Positions 3,828 through 63,800 of a stretch of 64,000 nt of DNA are shown one piece after another (positions within the stretch are counted from its first letter, which is position 1; each line of letters starts with the position of its first letter). Where the stretch lies: contig NW_027362762.1 of NCBI RefSeq assembly GCF_046119375.1, forward strand, positions 341,620,001 through 341,684,000. The letters are read 5' to 3'. The notes under the pieces were generated by a model. That model made no database searches, was not told where the DNA came from, and saw nothing but the letters and a program-made list of their open reading frames with translations. The DNA comes from Phyllobates terribilis. Its lineage: Eukaryota. The position numbers and the translations under genes are program-made.

Positions 3828-6800
3828 TTAACTACCCATTTCAGCCCATTAGGTTAACGCATCAGGTAATGTTTTTGAATCAGATGACAGTGTATATGCC
3901 TCAGAAAATTTGTTTTTCAATATAGAAACTCACATAGATGAGCAAAAGAATCCTACTGAAGGAAAAAGAACAAATTTAAATGCAAAATGGGCAACTGTCT
4001 TTTCAATATGTACTATGGAACAAAACAGAGGCAAACTGTCATCACTAAAGGTCATTGTGCAAGTTTTCTAAGGAGTAGAATGGATATAACCTCTAGATAT
4101 ACGGTTAACAGGAACACAACTTGTTAAGTTGTACTATCTGCCATATGTCATCATAGACTGTTGTAGGAAGAAGGTCTTGGAAATTTTAACTCTCCATCGG
4201 TATCTTTTTAATGACGTCTTAAAGCGGCACTAATATGCATTTATCAATTACCTATTCCTATGACATTTTTAGCCGTAGTGATGTACCACACGTGGGCTTC
4301 ACCCATTGTTCCTGTTCTAAAGCCAAATGGTTCTGTTAGAATATGCGCTGAATACAAAAGTCCAGTTAAAAGTCTATTACAGTTACAAGTTATCACCTAT
4401 TCACAGGATAGGTGATAATGTCTAGATTTGGCTACTAGTTTCTAGGAAACTGGCCATTTTTGACAGACTGCAGCAGTGGCCAGTAACCTAGGCAACAAGC
4501 TGTAAATTATAGAATTACAAATCCTTCTTATCTTGAGAACTGAGAAAAATTTTAATAGGAGGTAAATTGTTAAGTTTATTTGTTTTTACAGACAGTTTGC
4601 AATTTTACCCATTTAAGAAGTTGAGGCAACCCCTCCCTGTATGCCTACTCTTCTGTCAAAAACAGCGCTGGACAAATATACTATATAAAAATGTTCTGCA
4701 AAGTCATAGTGAAAACCATGAAAACCTTAATGACGCAAAGGCTTTATAACACCTATTAATTATGCAACGTTATTTCATCCTGGCAATCAATGAAGGCTTC
4801 TTAGAAAACGAAAATTCAGTCTTTGCCATGAATGGAATACATATTCCTTGCCAATGGTGTAGATTAAGTTATTCAAGAACATAGTATATGAAGTTAGGAG
4901 CTGCAATATTATATAACAATCTACCTGTGAGAATGAAAGCTCACGTAATAAAAAAGGTGAAAAGGTGTGTTTCAGACTATGAGGTAGCATTTGATCCAGG
5001 GTTATTCCCTGGGGTCCCATGTTATCTGTCAGTAAGAAAATCTTACAAGGATTTGGAAGAATGTAGCCCTATTCTGAAACAACTATATAGTGAGGCATTT
5101 TCCATCATGGTGGGGGTCTGTTTGCAATTCACACAGGGCTACAGCTTTTAGTCTGAACAGCTTGGTCAAAACGCATTGCAGCAATACAGTGCCCTACACA
5201 GCAAGTAGACTGAATAAAGACAGTGCTTCATTGTGCTCAGCCCTCTCCCCCCAGTAAGTTACCCCACACCTACACTGCTCTATCTAGTGAGATATCCTGG
5301 CTGCTAATGACAGATCCATAAATGTTGTAATACTAGACCTGCTATTTTAACCCCTTTTTCCAACCCAGCATTGCATCTCCTTCAAAAAAATTTGGATGCA
5401 ATCATTTTCTGCAAGAATAAACACATTCTACTTATGTTTAGCATTTATTTTATCATACGTTTTCTTTGCTTGCTCGATAGATAATAAAAGAATTGAACAA
5501 TATATTATATTTTACACATTAACAGTAGCTGAGTTTACTTACTTGATACCGATCATTGAGATATGAAAATGAACTGTTATCTTTAGGTTTTCCACAGGTA
5601 TGAACATGGGGCTTGTTTCCACCTATCCAGCTGTCCATTAATTTTTCCCTCCACCATGGTACAGAAATACAGGAAAAGGATGTGAAAATGTATCCCCTGG
5701 ATTTCTATGGAATAGTTCCCATTCATCTGTCAAATTAGTTATTGCACCTGATTGGTCCTAGAGCCGAATCAAGAAATGCCACATGCAACGTTTTCTGATC
5801 CAGACTGGTACAATTATGGCATCAGCTGTGTCCGCTTTAGGTTTAGAGAAAACTGTCCAGACCCAACTAATAAATGGTTGTAAGGGCAGGTGCAGATGAT
5901 CGTATGTTATCCATCTGAGAAAATTGGTCTGAATATGCTAATCACACTCTGATCAAACTCTGCCACAGATATCTGAGAATGTTCTACCATGACTTTATTT
6001 ATTAATGTAGAACCTTTTGGGCTTCACAGGAGTACTAAGATGGCAGCCAGGGACAGACCTTTGGCTCCCTGAGATCGGGCACAATCTGACAATCACATAA
6101 TTTAAATGCTACTGTCAGTTATTGACAATGGCAATTAAATAGTTAAAAGGTTGCGGTTGCTGCTGTTATGGGCAGATGCAGGTTATATAACACATCTGCT
6201 GGATATGATGCAGGCTCAGCTCTTTAGTCCATTCCATATTATTATTAAATTGTACATTAGGAAGGGGTTAAAGGATTTGCATGAAACTCGAAAACAAAAA
6301 AAGCCATGTTCTTCATTTAACATCATTACTCTTGTCCGAAGGTTGTGTCTAGTATCGCAGTGACACTGTTTTTTTTCTATTTTACTTTTCTAATCTCATA
6401 CAAGCTCTAATTTTTCTTACGCAGTGTAGAAAAAGAGAAGAATTAAAAAGGTTGTCCCAGGGATAAATAATTTTTTTTTGATAGATCACACAAGCATAAA
6501 ATGTTTTAATTGGAATGAGAATAAGAAATGCTCCTGTGAATAGATATAAGGTCACAACTACGCAGTGACTTTAACCACAACAGCAACTAAAGTTCGCTCA
6601 GTGTCACTACTACATCACAGCGCTATACAAGTTGATAGGAGCCGCATTCTGACACCTACATTACTGTGACCACTAAAAGCAAGTCAAAACAAACAGACTT
6701 GCGTGGATTTTTTGCGAATTGCCTGTCGTGGTAGTGTAAGTGTTGCAATGTGACCCCATTCATTTCACGCCATTATGCAGCAACGGTATTGTGCGAACTT

Positions 6801-8451
6801 CAGTCGCGCAACAGCTGTTGCAGCCAAAGTCACCATGTAGTCCCAGCCCTACTTTTACATACTTATTACGGTGCCCTATAGACCAATACTGTCTCATCAC
6901 AGGAGGATCACAAAATAATTGAAAGAGATCCAAAAGCGAAAAAAAGGTAACCCTATACACAAGAGTTTTCAATCTGTGATAAATACCTTATTGATACCTA
7001 TAATTACTAAAAAACATACATAAAAAGGAGTGTTTTTTTTTTCTTTCTCTGCATCACTTTTTACCACTTTTTATTATAGGTATCAATAAAATATTTATTA
7101 CAGATTGAAAATTCTTGTATTGAGGGTTACCTTTTTTCATTTTTGAATCTTATTATGGTGCCCTCTGATTATCTTTTGATTCATAATTAAAAGGAACCTG
7201 ACAGGTGATACATGTGGGCAGCATGTATCAGCCATTGGCTGTACGAACACAGCCACGTACAGTTAGTCTCTGTAACGCAGTCAGGGACCAAGCCGTACCA
7301 GTGACTAGTCATACAAGTGGGGCCCAGGGGCTTCTCTCTGACTGCTGACAGTGCGCGTATAGGCAGAAGACCACGGTGCCTGATTTAACGTACTCCTGCA
7401 CTGATTAAAAGCACTTCACCATCATATTATTAAACAGTACAGGTTTCTGCTAGTAGTGCAGGGGTTAATCTATTCAGTTGAGAGCTCCTGTAGCTTTCTT
7501 GCTTTGATGGTTTCAGCTGTTCAGTGTTGGCCACTCCACTCAGCTATATATACTCACCTCTTGCAATCAGTGATTGCCAGTGTTAGTTTCATACTGCCTG
7601 GTTCTGGAGTTGGAGGTGTTGGTTGTTTAAAGAAGCATTTGAAGTGTTGTTCTGAAGACTTTTGCTTGGCGATTTATCTGTGTGCATATCCTCATCCTCT
7701 CATATTTGGTTTTTCCTTCCTTCACTTCCTGGTGTTCCACTCTGTTGTTTGTGAGTGCATATTTGTATGATTGGAACTTTGATTTCTCCCTGTACATCTT
7801 CCCTTGTTAGTCTGGTTTGTGTATTCTTATACACTACTACTCCCTACTTTTCTGACTTGAACAGTGAACCGAACAGAATGGTATAACATTAATAGCATAT
7901 TAAATGCTAGGGATACTCCCAACTAGACACATCTCCTACAAATGAATGGAGTATAAATCCCACAAGACAAAAGAGTTACTAAAATATAAATTTTATTAAA
8001 TTGCAATATAAAAAGAAAAACACACACAATTTGCTTAAAACAGTAAATAGATCCCTTGGGGTAAGAATCACACGAAATCAGTTTGGCAAATAGATCTGGG
8101 TTCAGATGGTGTCATTCAAGAAATGTAAAAAATATATATAGAGACAGGCAATAAAGAAATATATATCGCGAGTCCTCAATCCACAGCAACAAAAATCTAT
8201 ATGTGTAGGATACCAAGGTCCAAACATATGAGAGAGGTAAGCCACAATATGCAAATTCTGTAATCAAAAAAGTACAATATAATTATATGTGGCTAAGAAC
8301 ATCATCCTCCTTCAAATGGAATGAAGGATAGTGTGAGCTGTACATAATAGACTACCCCATAAGGTTATGTGCCATAGAGTTAATACAGGTTATATGATGC
8401 AAACTCCTAAATGACTCACCCATCTGTGTAGTAGCCCCTATGCCGCACTGA

Positions 8452-8492
8452 AGCCCCGACGCGCGTTTCGCGTGTTGCTTCTTCTGGAGGCT
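8452..8492 (-). ncRNA. Minimal type I hammerhead ribozyme motif in the 3' pLTR
   Basis: AGCCUC-CAGAAGA-A-GC-AACAC-GC-GAAA-C-GCGC-GUC-GGGGCU: 6-bp stem I, 2-bp stem II, palindromic loop III, GUC triplet; core position 4 is A instead of U. Confidence 0.7.
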
Positions 8493-9179
8493 GTGATAGA
8501 GCGTGTGGATCGCCATTTTTAAATGCCCAGAATAATTAGGATGCCGGTGTCAATGCCGGTGTATGCAGCGCGTGCGAGAGTTACCGCCCCCCCGAGACGC
8601 GTCATATCCGGCCATTTCCTTTCGGGGCTGTGGGCCGGAACAATGCGTTCCAGTGACGTCAAAGGCCCACCTCCCCATCATACGGAAGCCTTGATGACGC
8701 GACGGGCCGGGGCGGGCCTGCGCACGCGCAGCTCAGCAGTAGACAACGTAAGAAGGGAATAACAACTGGGCAAGTATAATGATACATACAGGCCATACAC
8801 CCGATAACAATATATATAAGCACAACGTGGACACCCATTGTATGTGCCATCAAGACATACCAAAATGAAAATAGCCATCATAAGTTATCCGTCCAAAATA
8901 TTCTAATACCCACATCTCGTAATCAGAAGAATTTAAATAAAAATATATATCTTCAATGGGGCTTTTTAGTGTAGATCATATTATGTTGATGGTATCCAAG
9001 ATTCAACATGTAGGGAATTCATTTCATCCATACTAAGAAGGGTATGTCCAGATAAAGTTGAGATCAGTCCAATTATGGTCCAAGTATGTACCCAAAAAGC
9101 AAATATACTGAAAAAAACAATGAAACAAATAATAATTTAAAATCCACACATAAAAAGGGGAGAGAGAAAAAAGATCAAT

Positions 9180-12100
9180 CTACAAATAAGGAGCAAAACT
9201 ATTGAGCTCATTGAGACCCCTAGGGGTCACAGTGTCCAGGACAGCTATCCAGCGGCACTCCAGCTGCGCCAAAATACGCTTGTGGTCCCCACCCCGACTA
9301 CCGAGGTGTATCTGATCGATGCCTCTGAATTTGAGGCAAGAGGGGTCACAGTTGTGGCGCAGCTTGAAGTGCCGCGGGATAGTCTTCAGTAGCGCTAAAT
9401 CAGAGACCTCACGTGCCGCCAATATAGCTCGCACGTGTTCTCTCACTCGAACCCGAAATTCCCTAGATGTGAGCCCCACATAACTCAAATTGCAAGGACA
9501 TCGGGCCATATAAATAATATGCGTGGAGCTACAGGAAATATGACGGGTAATCTTAAAGTTCCGTACGCCATCCGTGGATGAAAATGTCATGGCCCTCTCT
9601 ATATTCCTGCAGGCCAAGCAGGAACCACACGGATAGCAACCCCACTTTGGTTTTCCAACTCCAAACAGAGTAGTTGAAGGGGCGACATAGTGGCTTCTTA
9701 CCAAAGAGTCTTTTAAACTTTTACCCCGCCTTGCTGTCATTAATGGTCTCTCAGGTAAGATTTGATTAAGTATCGGTTCCGTTTTTAATATGGGCCAGTG
9801 TCTAGATAGGATCTCACGTATTTCCCGCCACCGATTATTGTAGGTGGAAATAAATCTGATGGGAGAGTCTCTCTCCTCCTGTTTTTTTGTTGTATTTACT
9901 AGGAGGGAGACTCGTGGAGTCCTCCTTGCACGTCTGTAGCCCCTTTTGATACTTTGTGCACTGTATCCACGGTCCCGAAATCTATGGTTAAGGTCCCGAG
10001 CCTGAGCCTCAAAAGCCACCTCTGAAGAGCAAATACGTTTCATTCTTAGATATTGTCCTACAGGAATGGCCCGGATGGTAGATGAAGTATGTGCTGAAGT
10101 AGCATGCAACAGAGAGTTGACCGACGTCTCCTTACGGAAGACGTCGGTCTCCATCTTGCCATCCTGCTGGACAATGATCCTAATGTCCAAGAATTCAATT
10201 TCACTCCGATTGTACTTATATGTGAGTTTGATGTTCCGATCGTTATGATTTAAAGAGGAGATAAACTCATGTAGCTCAGGCTCGGGACCCTGCCAGATAG
10301 AAAAAATATCGTCAATGTATCTATACCAGCACTGCGCATGGGAGGCGGCGCCCACCCCATCCTCGAAAATCTCCCTCTCCCAATAGCCGAGGAAGAGATT
10401 AGCGTACGATGGGGCACACGCCGCGCCCATCGCAGTGCCGCGTTTCTGTAAAAAAAACCTATCTTTGAAAATGAAAAAATTATGAGTCAATATAAATTGT
10501 AATAATTCCATCAACAGTGCACAAAGTGGGGCATTTAAATCACTAGACTCCAGAAAGAACTCAACGGCTCGTAAGCCATCCTCATGACCTATGCTCGTAT
10601 AAAGTGACTCCACATCAATAGCCACCAGGGTCATATCCGTGTCCAAATGCAAACCCTCTATTTTTCTCAGGACGTCACCAGTGTCCCTGACATAGGAGGG
10701 CAGCGTCTCCACCAGTGGATGAAGATAGTATTCAATGAACTTACAAACTGGATCACACAGCCCTCCAATGCCAGAGACAATGGGACGCCCCGGGGGGTCC
10801 ATAAGGCTCTTATGGACCTTAGGTAGCAGATAAAATGTTGGGGTCACTGGAAATTTAGTGCATAGGCCATCAAAGATCTTTTTAGGAATAATACCCTGCT
10901 CATAAGCTCGTTCCAGAATGTCAAAGAGTTCAGCCATAAAGGTTGTTAATGGATTATTAGATAGAGAGATATAAGAGGCTCTATCCCGCAGTTGTCTAAA
11001 AGCCTCCTTCTCATATTTTGCGACTGGCCAGATCACAACGTTCCCTCCCTTGTCTGCCGGTTTAAATACCACGTCCCTCATAGATTGGAGTTCTCTGAGT
11101 GCTTTTCTCTGTTCTAATGTGGGGTTGTCATTCCTCAAGTGTCCACAGAGTTTTCTAAGGTCATTACTCACCATTTTATTAAAAATTTCAATCTGGGGAC
11201 AAAGAGAGAAGGGAGGGAAAGTGGTAGATCTGGCCAGGGCAGTAATGGGAAAAGTACCTGAGGAGGCCGGAGTACTCTCTCTCTCCAATTCTTCCAATAT
11301 GGATAAAGCCTCTCTCTCTTGGGTCGTATCCAGCAACTGACATGTTGGTTTGGTGTGTAATTTGCGTAATAGCACCTTCCTGAGGAAAAGTTGTAAATCC
11401 TTTAGTGCTGAAAAAAAATTATAATTATTAGTCGGAACAAAGGTTAAACCCAATGACAGTACTTCATTTTGGCTTTCTGAGAGGGTATGAGCAGAGAGAT
11501 TAATTACCTCTAAATTGTTAGTTCTCAATTTTTTCTCCAGAGGTTGTGGGGGGGTTGTTTTCCTTTTAGAGTTATGTTTCCCCTTCCACTGACCATGGTA
11601 CGCACTGCTACTCCCAGCCTGCATTCCCTTTGGTGCTTCTTCCTCCATAGATGATAAGGAGGAGATTGAATTCCACCGATTCCCCGGCCTTGTCTTATTG
11701 TGAGTTTTTCTACCTCTCCATCTGTAGACCTGTTTTTGTTTAAAGTCTGCAAGATCTCTTTGGTACTTCTTGGTTTTGGAAGCCACTATGTCTTTTTCCC
11801 ATTTCACAAATTCCCTGTCAAGATCCTGATTAAATTGATTTAGGGCTTCAGGGGTTAACTTGGTGGATAGTGAGTCCTGGAGTTGAGTAATCTCCAACTC
11901 AATGCTATGTAGGGACTGTTCATTAGATCTAATTAGAAGTTCCATGTGCCCTTTAGAACAGGTAGATGAAATGTCCTCCCATTGTTGTTCCAATGAGACA
12001 TCTTGAAACTCAAATGCCGGAAAAACCTGAACACGAAGACCCCTAGGGATCAGTCCTTTAGCAATGTAGAGCTCCAAAAAGGCCTTATTCCACCAAAGGC

Positions 12101-12851
12101 GGATCTTTTTATTGTGTAGGTCTTTTAGTTTAAAAATCAAATCATCACTCTCCCTTGTATTTAAAATCACAGTGGATTCCTCCCCAAAGACCTTATTTAG
12201 TTGGGTGAGCCAGGTCTGCTCACGCTTTTTGTGATCCATGTGTTCGGACCCAGATGCTGTGAAAAGACACAGAATTAACCAGACTTGAACAGTGAACCGA
12301 ACAGAATGGTATAACATTAATAGCATATTAAATGCTAGGGATACTCCCAACTAGACACATCTCCTACAAATGAATGGAGTATAAATCCCACAAGACAAAA
12401 GAGTTACTAAAATATAAATTTTATTAAATTGCAATATAAAAAGAAAAACACACACAATTTGCTTAAAACAGTAAATAGATCCCTTGGGGTAAGAATCACA
12501 CGAAATCAGTTTGGCAAATAGATCTGGGTTCAGATGGTGTCATTCAAGAAATGTAAAAAATATATATAGAGACAGGCACTAAAGAAATATATATCGCGAG
12601 TCCTCAATCCACAGCAACAAAAATCTATATGTGTAGGATACCAAGGTCCAAACATATGAGAGAGGTAAGCCACAATATGCAAATTCTGTAATCAAAAAAG
12701 TACAATATAATTATATGTGGCTAAGAACATCATCCTCCTTCAAATGGAATGAAGGATAGTGTGAGCTGTACATAATAGACTACCCCATAAGGTTATGTGC
12801 CATAGAGTTAATACAGGTTATATGATGCAAACTCCTAAATGACTCACCCAT
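9180..12851 (-). CDS. Penelope-like RT + GIY-YIG endonuclease ORF; predicted exon 1 at 12851-12848, intron 12847-12257, exon 2 at 12256-9180
   Basis: 1056-aa open frame 9180-12350 with DKGGNVVIW, LPKVHK...GRPIVS, DVESLYTSI, GTAMGAACAPSYANLF, YIDD, a Cys-rich linker (CYPCGSCLAC), IIY...YVG...R..EH and a terminal GLN. ATG-G/GTGAGT donor and TTTTCACAG acceptor join in frame to give MASGSEHMDHKK. Confidence 0.9.
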
Positions 12852-12879
12852 CTGTGTAGTAGCCCCTATGCCGCACTGA

Positions 12880-12920
12880 AGCCCCGACGCGCGTTTCGCG
12901 TGTTGCTTCTTCTGGAGGCT
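12880..12920 (-). ncRNA. Minimal hammerhead ribozyme motif in the 5' pLTR
   Basis: Identical to 8452-8492; predicted cleavage at 12886, 35 nt upstream of the predicted ATG at 12851. Confidence 0.7.
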
Positions 12921-12928
12921 GTGATAGA

Positions 12929-14825
12929 GGACGTGGTATTTAAACCGGCAGACAAGGGAGGGAACGTTGTGATCTGGCCAGTCGCAAAATATGAGAAGGA
13001 GGCTTTTAGACAACTGCGGGATAGAGCCTCTTATATCTCTCTATCTAATAATCCATTAACAACCTTTATGGCTGAACTCTTTGACATTCTGGAACGAGCT
13101 TATGAGCAGGGTATTATTCCTAAAAAGATCTTTGATGGCCTATGCACTAAATTTCCAGTGACCCCAACATTTTATCTGCTACCTAAGGTCCATAAGAGCC
13201 TTATGGACCCCCCGGGGCGTCCCATTGTCTCTGGCATTGGAGGGCTGTGTGATCCAGTTTGTAAGTTCATTGAATACTATCTTCATCCACTGGTGGAGAC
13301 GCTGCCCTCCTATGTCAGGGACACTGGTGACGTCCTGAGAAAAATAGAGGGTTTGCATTTGGACACGGATATGACCCTGGTGGCTATTGATGTGGAGTCA
13401 CTTTATACGAGCATAGGTCATGAGGATGGCTTACGAGCCGTTGAGTTCTTTCAGGAGTCTAGTGATTTAAATGCCCCACTTCGTGCACTGTTGATGGAAT
13501 TATTACAATTTATATTGACTCATAATTTTTTCATTTTCAAAGATAGTTTTTTTTTACAGAAACGCGGCACTGCGATGGGCGCGGCGTGTGCCCCATCGTA
13601 CGCTAATCTCTTCCTCGGCTATTGGGAGAGGGAGATTTTCGAGGATGGGGTGGGCGCCGCCTCCCATGCGCAGTGCTGGTATAGATACATTGACGATATT
13701 TTTTCTATCTGGCAGGGTCCCGAGCCTGAGCTACATGAGTTTATCTCCTCTTTAAATCATAACGATCGGAACATCAAACTCACATATAAGTACAATCGGA
13801 GTGAAATTGAATTCTTGGACATTAGGATCATTGTCCAGCAGGATGGCAGGATGGAGACCGACGTCTTCCGTAAGGAGACGTCGGTCAACTCTCTGTTTCA
13901 TGCTACTTCAGCACATACTTCATCTACCATCCGGGCCATTCCTGTAGGACAATATCTAAGAATGAAACGTATTTGCTCTTCAGAGGTGGCTTTTGAGGCT
14001 CAGGCTCGGGACCTTAACCATAGATTTCGGGACCGTGGATACAGTGCACGAAGTATCAAAAGGGGCTACAGACGTGCAAGGAGGACTCCACGAGTCTCCC
14101 TCCTAGTAAATACAACAAAAAAACAGGAGGAGAGAGACTCTCCCATCAGATTTATTTCCACCTACAATAATCGGTGGCAGGAAATACGTGAGATCCTATC
14201 TAGACACTGGCCCATATTAAAAACGGAACCGATACTTAATCAAATCTTACCTGAGAGACCATTAATGACAGCAAGGCGGGGTAAAAGTTTAAAAGACTCT
14301 TTGGTAAGAAGCCACTATGTCGCCCCTTCAACTACTCTGTTTGGAGTTGGAAAACCAAAGTGGGGTTGCTATCCGTGTGGTTCCTGCTTGGCCTGCAGGA
14401 ATATAGAGAGGGCCATGACATTTTCATCCACAGATGGCGTACGGAACTTTAAGATTACCCGTCATATTTCCTGTAGCTCCACGCATATTATTTATATGGC
14501 CCGATGTCCTTGCAATTTGAGTTATGTGGGGCTCACATCTAGGGAATTTCGGGTTCGAGTGAGAGAACACATGCGAGCTATATTGGCAGCACGTGAGGTC
14601 TCTGATTTAGCGCTACTGAAGACTATCCCGCGGCACTTCAAGCTGCGCCACAACTGTGACCCCTCTTGCCTCAAATTCAGAGGCATCGATCAGATACACC
14701 TCGGTAGTCGGGGTGGGGACCACAAGCGTATTTTGGCGCAGCTGGAGTGCCGCTGGATAGCTGTCCTGGACACTGTGACCCCTAGGGGTCTCAATGAGCT
14801 CAATAGTTTTGCTCCTTATTTGTAG
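12929..14825 (+). pseudogene. 5'-truncated inverted copy of the Penelope-like ORF (RT C-terminal part + GIY-YIG)
   Basis: Open frame matches the 1056-aa protein from DVVFKPADKGG onward with 8 amino-acid differences; the annotated start at 12900 lies in pLTR sequence across the inversion junction. Confidence 0.9.
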
Positions 14826-15274
14826 ATTGATCTTTTTTCTCTCTCCCCTTTTTATGTGTGGATTTTAAATTATTATTTGTTTCATTGTTTTTTTCAGTAT
14901 ATTTGCTTTTTGGGTACATACTTGGACCATAATTGGACTGATCTCAACTTTATCTGGACATACCCTTCTTAGTATGGATGAAATGAATTCCCTACATGTT
15001 GAATCTTGGATACCATCAACATAATATGATCTACACTAAAAAGCCCCATTGAAGATATATATTTTTATTTAAATTCTTCTGATTACGAGATGTGGGTATT
15101 AGAATATTTTGGACGGATAACTTATGATGGCTATTTTCATTTTGGTATGTCTTGATGGCACATACAATGGGTGTCCACGTTGTGCTTATATATATTGTTA
15201 TCGGGTGTATGGCCTGTATGTATCATTATACTTGCCCAGTTGTTATTCCCTTCTTACGTTGTCTACTGCTGAGC

Positions 15275-15494
15275 TGCGCGTGCGCAGGCCCGCCCCGGCC
15301 CGTCGCGTCATCAAGGCTTCCGTATGATGGGGAGGTGGGCCTTTGACGTCACTGGAACGCATTTTTCCGGCCCACAGCCCCGACAGGAAATGGCCGGATA
15401 TGACGCGTCTCGGGGGGGCGGTAACTCTCGCACGCGCTGCATACACCGGCATTGACACCGGCATCCTAATTATTCTGGGCATTTAAAAATGGCG
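15275..15494 (+). promoter_or_regulatory. CpG-rich putative PLE promoter (mirror copy on the minus strand at about 8511-8730)
   Basis: NRF1-like TGCGCGTGCGCA (15275), GC box, CRE TGACGTCA (15344), ETS-like GGAAAT, and ATTTAAAAATGGCG (TATA-like plus YY1-like) just upstream of the hammerhead and ATG. Confidence 0.5.
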
Positions 15495-15512
15495 ATCCAC
15501 ACGCTCTATCAC

Positions 15513-15553
15513 AGCCTCCAGAAGAAGCAACACGCGAAACGCGCGTCGGGGCT
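15513..15553 (+). ncRNA. Minimal hammerhead ribozyme motif in the inverted-arm pLTR
   Basis: Exact reverse complement of 8452-8492; GUC ends at 15547. Confidence 0.7.
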
Positions 15554-17741
15554 TCAGTGCGGCATAGGGGCTACTACACAGATGGGTGAGTCATTTAGGA
15601 GTTTGCATCATATAACCTGTATTAACTCTATGGCACATAACCTTATGGGGTAGTCTATTATGTACAGCTCACACTATCCTTCATTCCATTTGAAGGAGGA
15701 TGATGTTCTTAGCCACATATAATTATATTGTACTTTTTTGATTACAGAATTTGCATATTGTGGCTTACCTCTCTCATATGTTTGGACCTTGGTATCCTAC
15801 ACATATAGATTTTTGTTGCTGTGGATTGAGGACTCGCGATATATATTTCTTTAGTGCCTGTCTCTATATATATTTTTTACATTTCTTGAATGACACCATC
15901 TGAACCCAGATCTATTTGCCAAACTGATTTCGTGTGATTCTTACCCCAAGGGATCTATTTACTGTTTTAAGCAAATTGTGTGTGTTTTTCTTTTTATATT
16001 GCAATTTAATAAAATTTATATTTTAGTAACTCTTTTGTCTTGTGGGATTTATACTCCATTCATTTGTAGGAGATGTCCCTACTTTCCTGGCCTGGGTGGG
16101 GGAGGGGACAGATAAGGGCTGATTTAGGAGCTCAGCAAGGCACAAAGCCCTGATGTCTTCCCCATTAGAAGTAATCTGAAGAGCAGGGATAGCTAGGACA
16201 CCCCTAACTTTAGGCATAGGGAAGGAGCCCCTAGCCCTGGGATATCAAACAACAGTGCAGTGACAAGACGCTTGTCAGTCACTGTCAGAAGGCGGGGGGG
16301 AGGAGCCGGCGGTTGACCCACCTGTACAACTAGTCACTTATGCGGCTTGGTCTCCAGCGGCTATCAAAAGTATACCGTTCTCTGAAACACTGCAATGGTT
16401 CAGAATCAAACATACCTGCATGTGATTGTACAGCCAGTGGCTGATACATGCTGCCCACAGTTTGGGCAGCATCTGTCACCTGTCAGATTCCCTTTGAACA
16501 GTAACTCTAATATGTTCAGTGCTGGTGGTCACAAGTGCTCAGATGCTCAGTCAGTCCACCAGGATCCTCTTGTACACAGAGGGCTGAATGATTCCTCCTA
16601 CGGGGTAGATTAGACAAGGTGAATTAGTGCACAAGAAGCGGCTTCTTTTTGCAAAACTACATTTTTTCTAATCTAAAGAAAGATACTTTTGATAACATTA
16701 TGCATAAAAAAACTTCTACATAAAAATGATCCTATAGGGTATTGCTGCAGAAGAAAGATATAATAATATGCAGAAAACAGATTTACGTGACTATGCTCTT
16801 CTACCTATTCAACGTAATTGTAATTTTCTAATTATAGAAGAACGTGTTGATGTGACTGAGGGCAGAAATTTGCTTAAGCTTGGAGAAAAGTAAATAAATA
16901 AGTATACCCATTAAACTGATCATTAACGCAGAGTGTAAATTAAAAATCAATATCATTATTTTTAATGGCAGTCATTTCTGTAACACCGAAAAAAACTTGC
17001 TGATGAACTAGTAGAAGACCAAAACACTTAGCTTATTACTCCATAATTGGCCTCTTCTAGGCTGCTGGTTTCCACCACCTAGAGATTTACACATGGTGGA
17101 GATAATTTTGCCATGATCACTGTTCCACTCAACTGCAAAAGCTATTCATTATTCAGCATGAAGTAATTGTGGGTTAGCGAGAAGCCAATAACTCCAGAAA
17201 TATCGCATTACGGTCACGTTATTTAATAGGTTTACTATTTAGAAAATACTGCATATCTAATTGTAGTGTACAAGGAAATGACATCTAAGGTGACCTAGAT
17301 TGTATTTTCTTCCCACGGGCTCAGATCCAATTTATTGATAATTTTTATAGGATACAGTGTTACATATACTGTAGTATGAAATATCAAGTGATGCTGAGAA
17401 AACTACAATGATATTGTTGTATTATTTCTTAGTTCATAGCAACATACTGTAGACTTGCACAGTTTGAGTATAATATAATCTGATAAAAAGAAAGATAATC
17501 TTCATTTAAGCAAAAGGGAGAGGGGCATGTAAATAAAACTGATTTTCAGCCATATTGTGGCTAAACCATGCCTGCTATGTGTGCCTATTGGTTTCAAGTT
17601 CAATATCGGTCATTTATTTCTACTACAGCTGTATAAAACTGGGACAATATAACCAGTGATTCGGAAGGCAAAGACAGGCCTTATTCAGATGTCTATTTTT
17701 CACATACATGTTCTGTCTGTATTGTTCACGGTAAGAACACA

Positions 17742-20110: not shown

Positions 20111-20431
20111 ATGCTGGTGTAGCACCCTGAGGATTCGGCTGCTACAGGGGTATTGCACCTCAACCCAGAGGTGTGATATTCCACTCCCGGGTAAGGATGG
20201 AGTGTGGATCTGAGCTCAGATAGACTGCATGCACTACATACATCCCATTCCAGAGGAGCAGGCCGACGGTACTCCCACTTAGAAATGTGCAGGTACAACC
20301 GAGCCTGTTCCTGGCTGGAGTGGGAGGGGGGTGGTACATCCCATGTAGTGTAGGGGCAGAAAGGGGGAGCAGTCTGGGTAGTGATAGGAGCTCATTGGGT
20401 GCTGGTCACCTGAGCTCACACATAGAGGGTG

Positions 20432-20962
20432 TATATAAGGTGGGCACCATCAAAGATCAGGGTCAGACGCAGAGAGGAAGTCAGATGCAGAGGACAAGCC
20501 TGCAGCAAGAGAGAGAAAGAAACAACAGCCCTGGAGAGAGAGTGGAGTGCAGAAAGACCCAGAGGGGGACAAAGAAGGGACCCAAGAACCCAAATAAGAA
20601 CACCGGGTGAGGAGTCAGCAGAAGGGTACCGGAACCCAAGCTGGTGGGGGCAAAGACATTCCCCAGCCAGAGACCGGAGACCGTGGGCAGTGTCTGTCAC
20701 GGTCACCCACTACATTCACCCTGAAGGCACACCACATGGAGGGTCAGGGAACCTTAGGCCAAAGGTTGCCCAACAGAAGGCCCGAGGGAGCTGGATTTAG
20801 GTGAATCACTGGTGGGGACGGCTGAAGAAAGGACAGAGGGAGAGCTCAGGGCCACGCTCCGGACTTGTTTGGGGGTTGGCTGGATCCAGGACCTGGTGGA
20901 CGCAGCACGGCTCGGGAGGTCACTTGGAGCTAGAGTGACCAGGAACATCTGCAGTAAGTAAA
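20432..20962 (+). promoter_or_regulatory. LTR TATA box (20432-20438) and AGTAAA polyA-signal variant (20957-20962)
   Basis: TATATAA and AGTAAAGACCC both occur in the related solo LTR at 17742-18744. Confidence 0.55.
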
Positions 20963-21336
20963 GACCCTTAACTGCACAACCCGAGTCTGTCATCATTACC
21001 GGCTGCACCGCACCACCACAACCCCCATCCTCTGCGCCTGTCCCCTCTGAGGCTATACCCCTCCCGTTGGGGGTTATCCCACCAAGCTGTGCACCCACCA
21101 TCAGCCTCAGCGGACCCTGCAGCAGCGGCGGCCACAGTGACCGCATCACAACGGGTGGCGTAGTCGACACAACGAACTTTAATAACATCAGTAAGGACTG
21201 CCACATAACACTGAGCTTGACGCCCTGGGCACGGGACCGGGTCACAGCCGCTCGGAGACTACAACCCCCCCCCCATCTGATCCGGTGCCGGGTATTCCCC
21301 TCAAAAAGGAATATGTCCCAGGGGGCGCGTCAACTT

Positions 21337-23827: not shown

Positions 23828-26237
23828 TGTAGCACCCTGAGGATTCGGCTGCTACAGGGGTATTGCACCTCAACCCAGAGGTGTGATATTCCACTCCCGG
23901 GTAAGGATGGAGTGTGGATCTGAGCTCAGATAGACTGCATGCACTACATACATCCCATTCCAGAGGAGCAGGCCGACGGTACTCCCACTTAGAAATGTGC
24001 AGGTACAACCGAGCCTGTTCCTGGCTGGAGTGGGAGGGGGGTGGTACATCCCATGTAGTGTAGGGGCAGAAAGGGGGAGCAGTCTGGGTAGTGATAGGAG
24101 CTCATTGGGTGCTGGTCACCTGAGCTCACACATAGAGGGTGTATATAAGGTGGGCACCATCAAAGATCAGGGTCAGACGCAGAGAGGAAGTCAGATGCAG
24201 AGGACAAGCCTGCAGCAAGAGAGAGAAAGAAACAACAGCCCTGGAGAGAGAGTGGAGTGCAGAAAGACCCAGAGGGGGACAAAGAAGGGACCCAAGAACC
24301 CAAATAAGAACACCGGGTGAGGAGTCAGCAGAAGGGTACCGGAACCCAAGCTGGTGGGGGCAAAGACATTCCCCAGCCAGAGACCGGAGACCGTGGGCAG
24401 TGTCTGTCACGGTCACCCACTACATTCACCCTGAAGGCACACCACATGGAGGGTCAGGGAACCTTAGGCCAAAGGTTGCCCAACAGAAGGCCCGAGGGAG
24501 CTGGATTTAGGTGAATCACTGGTGGGGACGGCTGAAGAAAGGACAGAGGGAGAGCTCAGGGCCACGCTCCGGACTTGTTTGGGGGTTGGCTGGATCCAGG
24601 ACCTGGTGGACGCAGCACGGCTCGGGAGGTCACTTGGAGCTAGAGTGACCAGGAACATCTGCAGTAAGTAAAGACCCTTAACTGCACAACCCGAGTCTGT
24701 CATCATTACCGGCTGCACCGCACCACCACAACCCCCATCCTCTGCGCCTGTCCCCTCTGAGGCTATACCCCTCCCGTTGGGGGTTATCCCACCAAGCTGT
24801 GCACCCACCATCAGCCTCAGCGGACCCTGCAGCAGCGGCGGCCACAGTGACCGCATCACAACGGGTGGCGTAGTCGACACAACGAACTTTAATAACATCA
24901 GTAAGGACTGCCACATAACACTGAGCTTGACGCCCTGGGCACGGGACCGGGTCACAGCCGCTCGGAGACTACAACCCCCCCCCCATCTGATCCGGTGCCG
25001 GGTATTCCCCTCAAAAAGGAATATGTCCCAGGGGGCGCGTCACTGGGAGTTGTTGTTGCTATCAGTCTTTATCAGATTGCGGACCATACAGGAGCCACAG
25101 CACTGATGAGACACAGGCAGGATCCCAAATAAAATTTGACAATCCAGGTATCTTACAAGTGACATCTTCCGTGATTGGAGTCGTTCTCTTTCTCTTCGTC
25201 TCCATCTTGTCTAGACACCATGTTGACTTCTATCCACAGATCGTCTCTACCGACTTCCATCCTGTCGGGTTTTCTTCAACACATCCTGCCATGATGCCCT
25301 TAAAAAATAAGAGTGTTATTAAACTATTATTAAAAACATCTGTCTATACTCTGCCCTAAATAAGCCTCTTATTGTATATGGCCTCCACACTCTCTGCCCT
25401 TATGAGATATAAACCCACCACAGTGATTAGTGACTGTGCTTACAGCTCCATGCTCATGTGTGGATGAGAAATATGATCCTACACCAACCAGACAGCATGG
25501 AGCTCAGGCATCATAGTCACTAAACTACTGATTCTAATCAGTAACTCCTGCAGAAGCTGGCAGGCAGCAATTTGCATTCTCGGCAATCCTCATCTTTACT
25601 GAAGAGTCCCTGGGTCCCTATGTGCAGACGCCGCTCAGCATAGGCTGGAGGAGGGGAGCTGAAGGTTGTAAGTGGCTGAGGAGAGGACGAGCGGGAGGAG
25701 GAGCAGCCTGCATGCATGGCCTTGAGGCCGGCGTGTCAACGCTGTGGAGCTACAGCGCGTGGCACTGGTTTTGAATTTGAACCGAGGCACAGGCTCGTCA
25801 GCGACTGACATCGCTCACCACAGTGCCTGTGCCCCGGCTGTCGGGGTGCTGAATGCTTGCGGCCAGAAGAAGGTGCCTGGTGGTGGGAGGAAGTTGCCTG
25901 GCGGCCACAGGCATTCAGCAATGTCAGTTTGTTTTTTGTTTTTTTTTACACTGCACCCCCCTCAGGGAGGCAAGAGTTAGTGCCCTAGGCAGGTGCCTTC
26001 CCTGGCGGCGTACCCCTCATCTCGACCCTGCTAAGGGATATAACGCAAGGCACAAAGTCTGAATGGCAGCCCTATGGTTCTGCATCATCAAGTTGTGGGT
26101 ATTTTGTAAGCAGTGTATTATGGCCTCATAAACTTCTATGGGTGCCATAAGAAGAATCTGTACAGTACAGAGCCCATAGCCATAAAGGCACATACAAACA
26201 ACATCACTGCCCACTTTGCTTGATTTTTAACATGATA

Positions 26238-49143: not shown

Positions 49144-49447
49144 GTAAGACAGGACAGAGATAAATCGCCGAAGCGGTAAACAAAGACAAAGCAAAGGGGA
49201 CAGGGCTCTGTTCACATGGAACAGACTGGAAAAGAAAGGCAGAACCAGATACACACAAGGTACTTGCAAACAAGTAGCGAAAGGACTCCAACTCACAAAC
49301 GGAAGTACAATGACAACGAGTAGAAGTTAGGTGCAGGTTCAGATTCTACAGAAAAAGGGAGCAAACGGACATAAAGACAAAACAGATAAGAAGCTAGGAG
49401 ACAGTTCAGACAAGAACAGTTACTGCAACAAAATGCAAGAAGGAGCC

Positions 49448-50000
49448 CCCCGAGGAAGCAGCACGCGAAACGCGCATCGGGGCTTCAACGCGACATCGGA
49501 GTATACATTGCACATGGGTGAGCCACCTTATTTGTTGAAGACACCATTATGACTGTCTCACACATATATGAGAATGACTGGAACAGTTACTGAATCTGTA
49601 TACCTGTAGATTCCATCCATTTCTTGGATTTCTCTGATCATACACACTGCCATTTGGGTATACTATTTATGTATGTTCCCTTCATGTGACTGGTTGCATT
49701 TATACCAGAGTGCAACCTTTATTTCTATGCTATCAGATGATCTCATGTGCACTCCTATATAGAATTGTCGCATTGTATTTGTGTTTTCCATCCCCGGTGA
49801 CCTACTAAATTGTTATGAGTATATTGATTTTAATATTTATACTGAATAAAATTTGTCTTTTTAATATTATTCAATATTGTTCTATATTTCTTTTCTTGGG
49901 GGTCATACTTCATATATTTCTATAGGCTATGCATTTCAGTAGGAGTACCCTGTGTATATAATATGGTATTCTTTCATATGGTTCGGTTCAATTGTATTTA
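49448..50000 (+). mobile_element. Solo pLTR of a second Penelope-like family, with a hammerhead-like motif
   Basis: 18-bp TSD AAAATGCAAGAAGGAGCC (49430-49447, 50001-50018); CCGAGGA-AGC-AGCAC-GCGAAACGCGCATCGGGGCT; ATGG/GTGAG donor; GTTCGGTTCA near the 3' end, as in 7854-16075. Confidence 0.75.
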
Positions 50001-50018
50001 AAAATGCAAGAAGGAGCC

Positions 50019-50400
50019 TAGGTAAAGCCAAGTGCTGGTTCAGACACTGCAGAAAAAGGGAGCAAACGAACATAAAGACAAAACAGGTAAGAAGCTAGGA
50101 GACAGTTCAGACAAGAACAGGTACTGCAACAAAATGCAGGAACGAGCCTAGGTAAAGCCAAGTGCTGGTTCAGACACTGCAGAAAAAGAGAGCAAACGGA
50201 CATAAAGACAAAACAGGTAAGAAGCTAGAAGACAGTTCAGACAAGAACAGTTACTGCAACAAAATGCAGGAACGAGCCTAGGTAAAGCCAAGTGCTGGTT
50301 TAGACACTGCAGAAAAAGGGAGCAAACGGACATAAAGACAAAACAGGTAAGACGCTAGAAGACAGTTCAGACAAGAACAGTTACTGAAGCGAGATACAGG
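50019..50400. repeat. 130-bp tandem repeat, 3 copies (a fourth at about 49330-49447 is split by the pLTR insertion)
   Basis: TAGGTAAAGCC at 50019, 50149 and 50279. Confidence 0.9.
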
Positions 50401-52009
50401 AGCGAGTCTGGGTATGCGGCCCCCAGAGGGCGGGACGAACAGGCTAAGAGCGAGTTCACACGGGCCTGGAATTACAGCCTCCAGGAAAGGCAGAAAGACA
50501 GCTGGCTAGAGTGCACAGACAGGACACAGTTCAGACACGGGAACTGATACCATAAGGCAGGAAACATAGACAGGACCTGGCACATCAGTGACTAGAAGCC
50601 AACTGACAGAACAAGATGCTCAGGCAAGGATTCCAAGGAGGAGCTGGTTTAAATACCAGGTGACATACAGCAATAGGCTGAGGACACATTAGGGGTGTGT
50701 CTGCAGCAGCTACAAGAAACAGGAAGTTCGGCGGGCGTCGCCCTAAGCAGCCAGAGCAGAGCAAAGCAGACAGTATGGAAAGAAGCCAGAGTGACAGTCT
50801 GGACTGGAAATCAAGTGCGCGCTCTTGCACAGTGGGAGATGGACCACTATGCAAGGATGCCGCCAGGTATGTTACACTCCTCTTAACAGTTGTTGAAGAG
50901 ATGTGTCTGCTGCTAGAACTCTGTGTGGCATTGACCTGGTCTTTAATCTGAGCTGCTGTTAACCTGCGATTTCTGAGGCTGGTGACTCAGATAAACTTAT
51001 CCTCAGAAGCAGAGGTGACTCTTGGTCTTCCTTTCCTGGGGCGGTCCTCATGTGAGCCAGTTTCTTTGTAGAGCTTGATGGCTTTTGCAACTGCACTTGG
51101 GGACACTTTCAAAGTTTGCCCAATTTTTCAGACTGACTGACCTTCATTTCTTAAAGTAATGATGACCACTCGTTTTTCTTTACTTAGCTGCTTTTTTCTT
51201 GCCATAATACAAATTCTAACAGTCTATTCATTAGGACTATCAGCTGTGTATCCATCTGACTTCTGCACAACACAACTGATAGTCCCAACCCCATTTATAA
51301 GACAAGAAATCCCACTTATAAAACTTGACAGGGCACACCTGTGAAGTGAAACCATTTCCAGTGACTGCCTCTTGAAGCTCATCAAGAGAATGCAAAGAGT
51401 GTGCAAAGCAGTCATCAAAGCAAAAGGTGGCTACTTTGAAGAACCTAGAATATAAGACATATTTTCAGTTGTTTCACAATTTTTTGTTAAGTATATAATT
51501 CCACATGTGTTAATTCATAGTTTTGATGCCTTCAGTGTGAATGTATAATTTTCATAGTCATGAAAATACTGAAAAATCTTTAAATGAGAGGGTGTGTCCA
51601 AACTTTTGGTCTGTACTGTATATATAGTTTCATCTTTTACATTTTAAAAATTACAAAAGGAAAATGGGCTGATGCAAAAGTTTGGGCACCCTGCATGGTT
51701 AGTACCTAGTAGCACCCCCTTTTGAAAGTAACACAGTTTGTAAACACTTTTTGTAGCCAGCCAAGAGTCTTTCAATTCTTGTTAGAGGGATTTTCATCCA
51801 TTCTTCTATGGAAAATTCTTCCAGCTCTGTGAGATTCCTGGGTCGTCTTGCATGCACTGCTATTTTGAGGTCTAGCCACAGATTTTCAATGATGTTCAGA
51901 TCAGGGGACTGTGAAGGCAATTGTAAAAGCTTCAGCTTGCACCTTTTGAGGTAGTCTATTGTGGATTTTGACGTGTGTTTAGGATCATTATCCATTTGTA
52001 GAAGGCATC

Positions 52010-60860: not shown

Positions 60861-63800
60861 TAGTGTTGAGCGATACCTTCCGATATCAGGAAATATCGTA
60901 TCGGATTGGATCGGGCCGATACCCAAAAAGTATCGGATATCGCCGATTCCGATACCGGAAACCAATGCAAGTCAATGGGACACAAATATCGGAATGAAAA
61001 TAAACCCTTTCTTTCCTTGTAGGTTAATTCTACATGAAGTAAAACAACTAAGAATAATGTAGAATGACATGAAAAGCCGGCAATTCATCAGCGGCATTCA
61101 CCGGTACCCGACAATTTACAACAGAAAGAATAGAGCACCACACATAGATTAGATAGATAGAAACATGTCAGTCACATATATATGAAGTACAGTGACAGTG
61201 TTGCTTACTGTACTTGTCATTTAGTGTAAAGGATTTATTTTAAAAAATATTAGTGTTTTCGTGCACCGTCTCTTTAAGAAAGCCGGCCGGCAATTCAGTA
61301 GCGGTACCCGACAATTTATAACAGACAGAATAGAGCTTCACACATAGATTAGATAGATAGAAACATGTCAGTCACATATATATGAAGTACAGTGACAGTG
61401 TTGCTTACTGTACTTGTCATTTAGTGTAAAGGATTTATTTAAAAAAATATTAGTGTTTTCATGCACCGTCTCTTTAAGAAAGCCGGCCGGCAATTCAGCA
61501 TCTGTACCCGACAATTTAGAATAGAAAGAATAGAGAATCACAGATAGATTAGATAGATAGAAACATGTCAGTCACATATATATGAAGTACAGTGACAGTG
61601 TTGATTACTGTACTTGTCATTTAGTGTTAAAATAAAGGATTTATTTAAAAAAAAATTGGCGTGGGGTTCCCCTTAATTTTAGGCTCTAGCGGAGGTTAAG
61701 CAGACAGCTGGGGCAAATGTTTGAAGCCTGGGAAGGGGGTAATACCCACGGAGCTTCCCCCCAGGCAACTAATATCAGCCCCCAGCTGAATACCTAGCCT
61801 TTACTAGCTATTAAAATGGGGGAACCCCCCAAAAAAAATAACGTGGGGTCCCCCCTAATTTAATAGCTAGCAAAGGCTAGGCAGACAGCTGGGGGCTGAT
61901 TTTAATAGCCCAGGAAGGGTGCCATGAATATTGGCCCCCTCCCAGGCTAGAAACACCAGCCGTCAGCCGCCCCAGAAATGGCGCATCCATAGGATGCGCC
62001 AATTCTGGCACTTAGCCTCGCTCTTCCCACTGCCCTGTAGCGGTGGCAGTGGGGTAATAGGGCTGGGGTTGATGTCAGCTTATAATGCCAGATGACATCA
62101 AGCCCAGGTTAGTAATGGAGAGGCGTCTATAAGACACCCCCATTACTAACCCCATAGTCAAAGTTAAAGAAAAACACAAACACCCAGAATAAAGTCCTTT
62201 AATTGAAATAAACACACAATTCTTTATTGTTCTAAATTAAACCATACTTACCATCACGCCCATTCCAGCTGAAGCCAACGATCTCCTGCAATAAAAGAAA
62301 AATAATAAAGCAACATCATCCTTACCTTTCGATGGTTCCCAGGACAGCTCCAGCTCTGCTACATCGAGATGACAGGCTGGACCGCAGCAGAACGCTGCCA
62401 TCCAGCCTGTCATCCCGCAGACACTGAGAAGCGCAGGCATGCTTGCGCTCCTCAGTGTCTCTCTGTGACGTCATCCAGATGAGCCGAGTTCATGTCCAAT
62501 GAACTCAGCTCACCTCATGCACGTCACTGACAGCGTGGGAAAATTCTCCTGCACTCAGCGCTTCAGCGTGAGAATTCTCCCACGCTGTCAGTGACATACA
62601 TGAGGTGAGGTCATGTCCAATGAACTCAGCTCACCTCATGCACGTCACTGACAGAGTGGGAAAATTCTCACGCTGAAGTGCTGAGTGCAGGAGAATTTTC
62701 CCACGCTGTCAGTGACGTGCATGAGGTGAGCTGAGTTCATTGGACATGACCTCGGCTCATCTTTATGCCGTCACAGCCAGACACTGAGGAGTGGAAGTAT
62801 GTCTGCGAGATGACAGGCTGAATGGCAGCGTTCTGTTGCGGTCCAGCCTGTCATCTCGATGTAGCAGAGCTGAAGCTGTCGTGGGAGCCATGGAAAGGTA
62901 AGGATGAGGTTGCTTTATTATTTTACTTTTATTGCAGGCGATCGTTGGCTTCAGCTGGAATGGGCGTGACGGTAAGTATGGTTTAATTTAGAACAATAAA
63001 GAATTGTGTGTTTATTTCAATTAAAGGACTTTATTCTGGGTGTTGTGTTTTTTTAAATACTTTACTAGAAATTCATGGTGGTCATGTCTAATATTGGCGT
63101 GACCCCATGAATTTCGGGCTTAGGGCCAGCTGATAATGCCAAGCTGGCCTTAACCCCTTTATTACCCAGTGAGCCACCGCACCAGGGCCCTGGATGAGTT
63201 GGGTACAGCGCCAGAAGATGGCGCTTCTATGAACGCGCCATTTTCTGGGGCGGCTGCGGACTGCAATTTGCAGCGGGGGTGGCCCAGAAAGCTTGGGTCT
63301 CCCTGCGCTGCGGATTCCAGCCCCCAGCTGCCTAGTTGTACCTGGCTGGGCACAAAAATAGGGCGAAGCCCCACGCATTTTTTTTTTAAATTATTTCATG
63401 AAATTCATGGAATAATTAAGAAAAAAAGGGCTTCCCTATATTGTTGTGTCCAACCAGTTAAAAATAGGCAGCTGGTGGTTGGGGGCAGCCCGTTCCTGCC
63501 TGCTGTACCTGGCTGGACACAAATATAGTGCGAAGCCCCACGTCAATTTTTTTTTAATTATTTCATGAAATAATTTTTTTGAAAAAGGGCTTCCCTATAT
63601 TGTTGTGTCCGGCCAGGTACAAATAAGCAGCTGGTGGTTGGGGGCAGCCTGTTCCTGCCTGCTGTACCTGGCTGGACACAAATATAGTGCGAAGCCCCAC
63701 GTCAATTTTTTTTTAATTATTTCATGAAATAATTTTTTTGAAAAAGGGCTTCCCTATATTGTTGTGTCCGGCCAGGTACAAATAAGCAGCTGGTGGTTGG

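Follow-up and report, generated by a model that had tools for sequence, protein, structure and literature searches.

A Penelope-like element (PLE) inserted at positions 7841-16088 of a 64,000-nt stretch of the Phyllobates terribilis genome (contig NW_027362762.1; the whole stretch is called the window here) consists of two overlapping copies joined head to head within a single target-site duplication (TSD) of 13 bp. With confidence a little better than even, we propose that this was one insertion and that both copies were made from one RNA, from start sites 75 nt apart. It is very probable that both target strands primed complementary DNA (cDNA) synthesis, because the 3′ ends of both arms face outward inside one TSD, at this and every other two-armed locus that we mapped (26/26); the further step, in which one RNA served both primers, is held to be only somewhat probable. 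The locus itself is a real, young and ordinary member of its PLE family, and its layout is already known for the class; its value lies in the rules of that family, namely that each two-armed insertion has one end of each kind, that both arms come from the same source, that their lengths are coupled, and that run-off appears to occur at two RNA 5′ ends. These pairing and coupling rules are a modest clue to PLE integration and can be tested with an existing in vitro system.

The insertion and its target are laid out as follows (ORF, open reading frame; RT, reverse transcriptase or reverse transcription; UTR, untranslated region; pLTR, pseudo-long terminal repeat).

7364..7853: left part of a high-copy host repeat, the target
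7841..7853, plus strand: left TSD copy, 12/13 match to 16076-16088; the motif is single in 11/11 host-repeat paralogues
7854..12929, minus strand: tailed arm, pLTR-ORF-3′UTR-pLTR, 5076 bp, one 4428-bp unit plus 648 bp
7854..7928, minus strand: 75-nt tail, bounded by two putative RT start sites at 7854 and 7929
7854..8501, minus strand: 3′ pLTR, 647/648 identical to 12282-12929
8452..8492, minus strand: minimal hammerhead-like motif of type I; its core is CAGAAGA, with A at position 4, and the cut is predicted after 8458
9180..12350, minus strand: ORF, 1056 codons stop to stop, open, with DKG at 11057, YIDD at 10319, a linker C-x2-C-x2-C-x2-C at 9638, a GIY-YIG-type IIY..CPC..YVG at 9518, EH at 9449 and HF..H at 9374
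12257..12847, minus strand: predicted intron of 591 nt, suggested by the sequence, which holds both RT start sites of that pLTR-ORF junction
12282..12929, minus strand: 5′ pLTR, a 5′-truncated upstream partial tandem, with a probable transcription start near 12922
12880-12920 and 15513-15553: further hammerhead-like motifs, in the 5′ pLTR and the inverted-arm pLTR
12929..12929: head-to-head junction with 1-nt microhomology
12929..16076, plus strand: inverted tail-less arm, 3148 bp, with core RT and endonuclease at 12930-14825, 3′UTR, and pLTR at 15504-16076
16076..16088, plus strand: right TSD copy, from base comparison with 7841-7853
16091..16266: remaining, right-hand part of the host repeat; in paralogues it follows directly on the left part

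An earlier, sequence-only reading of the window had described a minus-strand pLTR-ORF-pLTR unit joined at 12929, through 1 nt of microhomology, to an inverted, 5′-truncated copy that lacks the 75 nt at 7854-7928, and base-by-base comparison confirms each of these points. Specifically, 12929-16076 is the reverse complement of 11076-7929 over exactly 3148 bp, with 13 substitutions (0.41%) and no gaps in both a self-comparison and a base-by-base check, and the junction base 12929 (G) is compatible with both arms. The pLTR copies at 7854-8501 and 12282-12929 differ at one base in 648. The inverted arm begins just before the DKG motif, with the whole core RT present and about 425 N-terminal codons missing. 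The single 13-bp TSD of the earlier reading does enclose both arms, although its copies match at 12 of 13 bases, with 10 exact bases, and are not identical; its length becomes 14 if the G common to 7854 and 16089 is counted, base 16076 is common to the TSD and the arm end, and such a repeat at both fixed offsets would arise by chance with a probability of about 6e-7. The tailed arm ends at 12929, 7 nt upstream of the modal 5′-end hotspot of the family, and is likely a near-complete run-off copy of a 5.07-kb RNA, so that no concatemer is required at this locus.

The PLE identity also given by that reading is borne out by the DKG motif of the RT, the linker and the GIY-YIG/CCHH motifs, the features by which PMC8557442 defines the C-terminal endonuclease of endonuclease-containing (EN+) PLEs and the linker of the Neptune clade. 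The ORF carries the RT motifs ADKGG, DVESLY, GTAMG and YIDD, the first containing the DKG of EN+ PLEs. It also carries the endonuclease motifs IIYMARCPCNLSYVG, RVREH, RHFKLRH, LECRWI and GLNE, which outline a C-terminal GIY-YIG domain with CCHH and two cysteines between GIY and YIG. The Pfam profile RVT_1 scores 28.8 bits on the window ORF (E=1.3e-6), just below its cut-off of 29.6, and 32.6 bits (E=8.1e-8) on the protein of the inverted arm, whose ORF fragment at 12930-14825 is also open. The Pfam GIY-YIG profile gave no match on the window ORF protein; several relatives carry PF01541 or a GIY-YIG name. The linker, CYPCGSCLAC at 9638, follows the CX2-5CxxC pattern of Neptune, which is also found in Nematis (PMC8557442), and the closest protein relatives are frog proteins, 54-66% identical. 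A partial tandem that gives the pLTRs, an inverted copy, a one-sided tail and a TSD, as in EN+ PLEs, are all present at the locus. On its motifs, then, the element is a C-terminal-endonuclease PLE of apparent Neptune type, the clade being assigned by motif and host range only, as Nematis has the linker too.

The view that the two arms entered in one event stands as well. In the host-repeat paralogues fetched, the left and right flanks are continuous and carry the duplicated motif once in 11/11. Joints from about 7849 to 16091, the same as the paralogue joint, also occur in public contigs searched with 6800-17200; these stem from host-repeat paralogues, and the empty site is paralogue-based, not an allele of the window locus. 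The right flank has 5 extra bases compared with the paralogues. A search of the assembly for a second allele with 631 bp of right flank found the window locus as the sole match. Among near-identical copies, 12 of the 13 differences between the arms occur in one arm only (5 in the tailed, 7 in the inverted), and 4 of the 13 are G>A at CG; this is what two copies that began identical and aged in place would show, and not an assembly fold-back. A 47-bp inverted pair (7213-7259 and 16413-16459, 87%) lies around the host repeat, which places the PLE inside a repeat inside an element resembling a miniature inverted-repeat transposable element.

The family to which this insertion belongs was surveyed by genome searches that gave 102 matches to a 24-mer close to the upstream end, 100 of them listed, and a few more; the loci were fetched and mapped on the element. 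Among the matches listed there are 59 independent insertions, 26 two-armed and 33 single-armed; copies of one insertion on contigs C35, C251 and C500 were counted once with that on C17, one locus (L049: tail/tail, inverted flanks, no TSD) was left out, and another (L073), with an N gap at its centre, was left out of the length tests. Tabulated across family copies, as the earlier reading had suggested, the junctions differ from one two-armed locus to the next while the layout is the same, head to head inside one TSD. This TSD has 13-16 bases in 21 of the 26, 18-19 in four, and an ambiguous length within a local repeat in one. Likewise, each of the 26 has a tail end on one arm and an upstream end on the other, an outcome with a probability of 0.5^26 if each primer chose freely, and the two ends are offset by 70-85 nt in 22 loci and by more in the other four. 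Single-armed copies end at the tail site in 17 cases, at the upstream site in 15 and elsewhere in 1; because they use either site about equally, both sites prime on their own.

The length of the inverted arm, and its re-copying of the pLTR, had been thought unusual. This does not hold for the family: the shorter arm is at least 1 kb in 13 of 25 measurable two-armed loci, at least 2 kb in 9 and at least 3.1 kb in 6 (the window included), every inverted arm terminates in pLTR sequence, and there is precedent in PMC2377424. An inverted arm of more than 3 kb is therefore normal here. The tailed arm reaches further in 16 of the 25 loci and the upstream-site arm in 9, by up to 4.5 kb. An upstream-site arm lies at a 5′-end hotspot with a shorter tailed partner at three loci (L020, L037, L042), and a tailed arm does so with a shorter partner at two (L034, L055); since either kind of arm can end at a hotspot beside a shorter partner, both appear to be primary cDNAs. 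Central joints show 0-3 nt of microhomology or short insertions, mostly of 1-7 nt and up to 25; a 33-nt central insertion scored for L055 is actually its short second arm. At the 3′ ends the median primer-template microhomology is 1 nt at each end, as scored by a script that erred at several ends (negative values). We make no claim of required primer-template homology, and the shifted upstream ends of L013 and L088 do show longer matches. Folding showed nothing remarkable in the tail region (z=-1.2).

Several individual loci deserve description. The excluded pair (L049, 1-8700) is a tail/tail head-to-head arrangement whose flanks are inverted too (97.8% over 3.8 kb) and which has no TSD; it may be a larger inverted duplication or an assembly fold. 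The same two-armed insertion is present on four contigs, C17, C251, C500 and C35 (L043-44, L005/L058, L059-60 and L081-82), with a 6.2-kb secondary insertion in the C251 copy and an extra ORF-start-plus-tail piece in the C500 copy. Templated inverted pieces of about 25-30 nt, resembling snap-back synthesis in end-joining, occur at 5′ junctions in L020 (8537-8563) and L075 (near 1465). At L006-L008 (G000:C6:13171093-13195607) the tailed arm is made of 3.5 tandem units of 4449 bp and the other arm has a 3.46-kb secondary insertion; the units have derived alleles in common in a mosaic, which suggests unequal crossing-over after insertion.

The 5′ ends of the arms provide information about the templates. 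Of the 83 arms, five (L042, L063, L068, L074, L083) stop at exactly 4473, the first base past the predicted hammerhead cut, and 16 form a cluster at element positions 4434-4442, which lies 29 nt downstream of a TATA-like word. This cluster we read as the probable transcription start. The hammerhead-like motif gives a full-length match to Rfam RF00163 at 23.6 bits, below the gathering score of 34 (E=0.042); in a motif census its stems and GAAA/GUC are conserved and core position 4 is A, and unconstrained folding did not yield the active fold. We count it as a putative ribozyme of the minimal hammerhead type that EN+ PLEs carry in the pLTR. The A at core position 4 occurs in subfamilies up to about 20% apart, and yet 5/83 arms start exactly at the predicted cut; such arms suggest that the ribozyme acts on templates in vivo, the non-standard core base notwithstanding. 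Removal of the predicted intron (12257-12847) would join an ATG at 12851 in frame to the ORF; its donor is conserved in 78 of 84 copies scored, and the ORF-start junctions of the fetched loci are unspliced in 16/16. One single arm (L018, 8420) starts one base inside the predicted donor and might copy an excised intron.

It is the relation between the two arms of a locus that bears most directly on whether one RNA was read or two. In 15 loci both arms extend beyond the start site, in 8 both lie within it and in 2 they are mixed (23/25 coupled; table rows 15, 1 and 1, 8; Fisher p=7e-5). This coupling of length class survives permutation within subfamilies (p=0.0015) and holds at cut-offs of 643-2000. 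A run-off arm is never paired with a long arm, against 5.8 such pairs expected (p=2e-4), and at the 7 loci where an arm ends at a first-unit hotspot the partner never exceeds the length that the start site permits. Furthermore, partner arms are 98-100% identical in subfamilies whose similarity to the window copy is 78-99%, and they carry the same haplotype alleles, even among near-identical sources, while several haplotypes coexist. Short pairs come from haplotypes that also make long insertions; L039 and L065, for example, have 7 alleles in common with C8a. Apparently discordant alleles in L039 and L046 were rejected as alignment shifts, and among unit-specific variants, which could fix the template register, none was informative. 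Strict end pairing, a common haplotype and coupled lengths together mean that one RNA read twice fits at least as well as two. Priming of one RNA at two neighbouring sites would produce all of these rules together. Geometry, end pairing, haplotype sharing and length coupling are the demonstrated part of our proposal; coupling of haplotype, end and length would favour an origin of both arms in the same RNA molecule, which pairs of RNAs from the same promoter would mimic.

In the scheme that we propose, the GIY-YIG endonuclease would make a staggered cut of about 13 nt. One 3′ end would prime RT at the tail site and the other at a site 75 nt upstream in the same pLTR, and both first-strand cDNAs would copy the same stretch of RNA, which would have to survive while the trailing RT displaced the leading cDNA. 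The cDNAs would differ in how far they extend, at this locus to near the RNA 5′ end (5076 nt) for one and over 3148 nt for the other, and their 3′ ends would be united by end-joining, as the microhomology or short insertions at central joints suggest, after which each would template the second strand of the other. We offer more tentatively a general PLE scheme of two coupled RT sites with fixed starts about 75 nt apart in the intron of an unspliced transcript, each extending one strand of the 13-nt cut and copying the same kilobases to a capped or ribozyme-cut 5′ end. If true, this coupled two-site reading would account at once for the inverted arms, the tail on one side only and the retention of the intron. 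The origin of PLE tandem and inverted structures is called undefined in PMC8557442, and the steps of integration after priming were left unvalidated in PMC11167929. Our literature search, in which older and subscription papers and supplements were poorly covered, found no paper in which the inverted arms of PLEs are traced to coupled priming at two sites of one RNA.

A number of considerations weigh against a single RNA. The coupling of lengths is gone at a cut-off of 500 nt (p=1), the 5′-end hotspot windows were defined after the data had been seen, and the transcription start and the ribozyme cut are deduced from sequence, not RNA. The two arms of the window differ at 10458 (G/T), as do those of L013, and both alleles occur in other copies, so that the site could mark two templates; since T is present in three haplotypes, it is probably a recurrent change beside a T8 run. 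The arms of L047 stop at two different hotspots, the putative start for one and the ribozyme cut, exactly or to within 3 nt, for the other, which sits uneasily with a single molecule. No contig bridging 12929 was found among the pieces listed (12830-13030; runs X1, X2, X3 and X5), a kind of joint that short-read contigs drop, so that this result speaks neither for nor against the junction. To our knowledge, PLE RT lacks RNase H; double copying of one RNA would require both strand displacement and escape from the RNase H of the host. Neither has been demonstrated for a PLE in the literature covered, and in the accessible text of PMC11167929 start-site use showed no difference between the strands, with coupling not tested there. 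Finally, genomic data cannot tell one RNA from two same-promoter RNAs packaged together.

The alternative that survives best takes up this last point: two RNAs with a common source and promoter would be bound by an asymmetric RT dimer, one RNA being primed at the tail site and the other upstream. It dispenses with strand displacement, and it fits both L047 and the discordance at 10458. Minimal PLE hammerheads have been proposed to act as dimers (PMC4209133), a possible route to RNA pairing, and in L1 there are insertions whose opposite ends were extended from different RNAs (PMC11702581). However, it needs extra rules to explain why each locus uses one end of each kind (26/26) and why its two arms agree in haplotype and in length class (23/25); nor was any arm pair from different subfamilies found, although every subfamily with 78-99% similarity to the window copy has pairs that are 98-100% identical. 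The evidence favours one RNA, a reading we hold somewhat probable, over two co-packaged RNAs, which we regard as unlikely. Hence, where the sequence-only reading preferred two RNAs primed on opposite target strands, the opposite-strand priming is upheld by the geometry of all 26 loci and the two RNAs become the second choice. Its objection that a single template fits poorly applies only to twin priming of the L1 kind, in which the arms do not overlap.

The same final layout could be produced by fold-back, in which a cDNA loops, copies itself and is then resolved at a point 75 nt before its start is reached, or by antisense self-priming as proposed for Adineta (PMC3846280). A common haplotype and coupled lengths would follow directly, and the near-perfect palindromic centre of L039 and the 25-nt snap-back insertion of L020 are of the expected kind. 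Nonetheless, we consider it improbable. A fold-back copy cannot outreach its tailed template, yet the upstream-site arm is the longer in 9/25 loci, by as much as 4.5 kb; the copy of a tail-less cDNA cannot gain a tail; each kind of arm can be the one at a 5′-end hotspot; single arms at the upstream site exist, several with TSDs of 12-14 bp; and in vitro both strands are extended (PMC11167929).

The concatemeric template that the earlier reading also put forward would allow classical twin priming, with the second primer in an earlier unit, so that the arms overlap in sequence and not on the template. Longer or circular templates must exist, because 6/25 loci have an arm past the upstream start (>5.1 kb; C8a, C6a, L038, L043 and L050 clearly, the window by 7 nt), and circular templates have been proposed in PMC4209133. 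But tail-arm lengths do not cluster at the predicted stops of 75+4428k, and the short run-off and long arm pairs predicted for pLTR-ORF-pLTR RNA are missing (0 against 5.8 expected). In addition, a single 5.07-kb RNA suffices for the window, and the units of the four-unit array C6a carry common derived alleles that point to amplification after insertion, which together make this explanation very improbable. Hardly more can be said for two independent adjacent insertions, a later inverted duplication or an assembly fold-back artefact, each very unlikely despite the one TSD mismatch (itself an event of about 5% likelihood at the divergence of the arms), the lack of a bridging contig among the pieces listed and the tail/tail inverted duplication including flanks at L049, given that one TSD surrounds both arms, that the target motif is single in 11/11 paralogues, that the layout recurs at 25 other loci with different junctions, and that the arms differ at 13 sites, 4 of them G>A at CG, as expected from genomic ageing.

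Elsewhere in the window, a 1215-bp direct repeat (20118-21332 and 23828-25042) is 100% identical and is possibly the long terminal repeats of a very young element or an assembly duplication. A segment at 49444-49525, an 80% match to the pLTR hammerhead region beside short tandem units (49331-50414), is possibly another PLE end or a retrozyme, and an imperfect palindrome of about 1.3 kb (61964-63256, 82%) stands among many smaller fold-back repeats.

It is informative to set the locus beside known systems. Neptune-type frog PLEs are like the window element in their CX2-5CxxC linker and their C-terminal GIY-YIG with CCHH. Form C of Penelope in D. virilis has large inverted terminal repeats of variable size (PMC2377424, Fig. 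1C legend), Pen2a_Av of the rotifer Adineta has the same layout as the window locus (PMC3846280), and a general scheme of complex EN+ PLE insertions is given in PMC8557442 (Fig. 2 legend); the accessible text of a retrozyme preprint (10.64898/2026.07.22.740005) contains nothing on inverted arms. In published complex insertions of PLEs the tail is 30-40 nt, compared with 70-85 nt in the window family, and the TSDs of the Adineta examples are 8-10 bp, compared with about 13-16 bp. Moreover, the available portions of these papers invoke endonuclease resolution or antisense self-priming rather than two-strand priming. The Poseidon element of Anolis carolinensis (PAc) has been studied in vitro: cleavage and extension take place on both strands, RT begins at two internal sites that flank the tail, and the protein is a predicted dimer, inverted insertions not being discussed in the text at hand (PMC11167929). 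PAc resembles the window family in two-strand extension, tail-bounding start sites, a hammerhead in the pLTR and little primer-template homology. It belongs to another clade, Penelope/Poseidon being without the linker zinc finger according to PMC8557442, and in the same portions of PMC11167929 no RNA sequencing reads end at the ribozyme cut, whereas 5/83 arms of the window family begin exactly there. Twin priming of L1 (PMC11702581) is similar in that both target 3′ ends are extended, the TSD is preserved and the cDNA joints show microhomology or small insertions; the geometry of 26/26 loci suggests the same two-strand priming for the window family. In contrast, L1 breakpoints are adjacent on the RNA, with deletions or duplications of 1-10 bp and arms that do not overlap, while the arms of the window overlap by 3148 bp, and, unlike L1, the second primer of the window family uses a near-fixed site 75 nt from the first.

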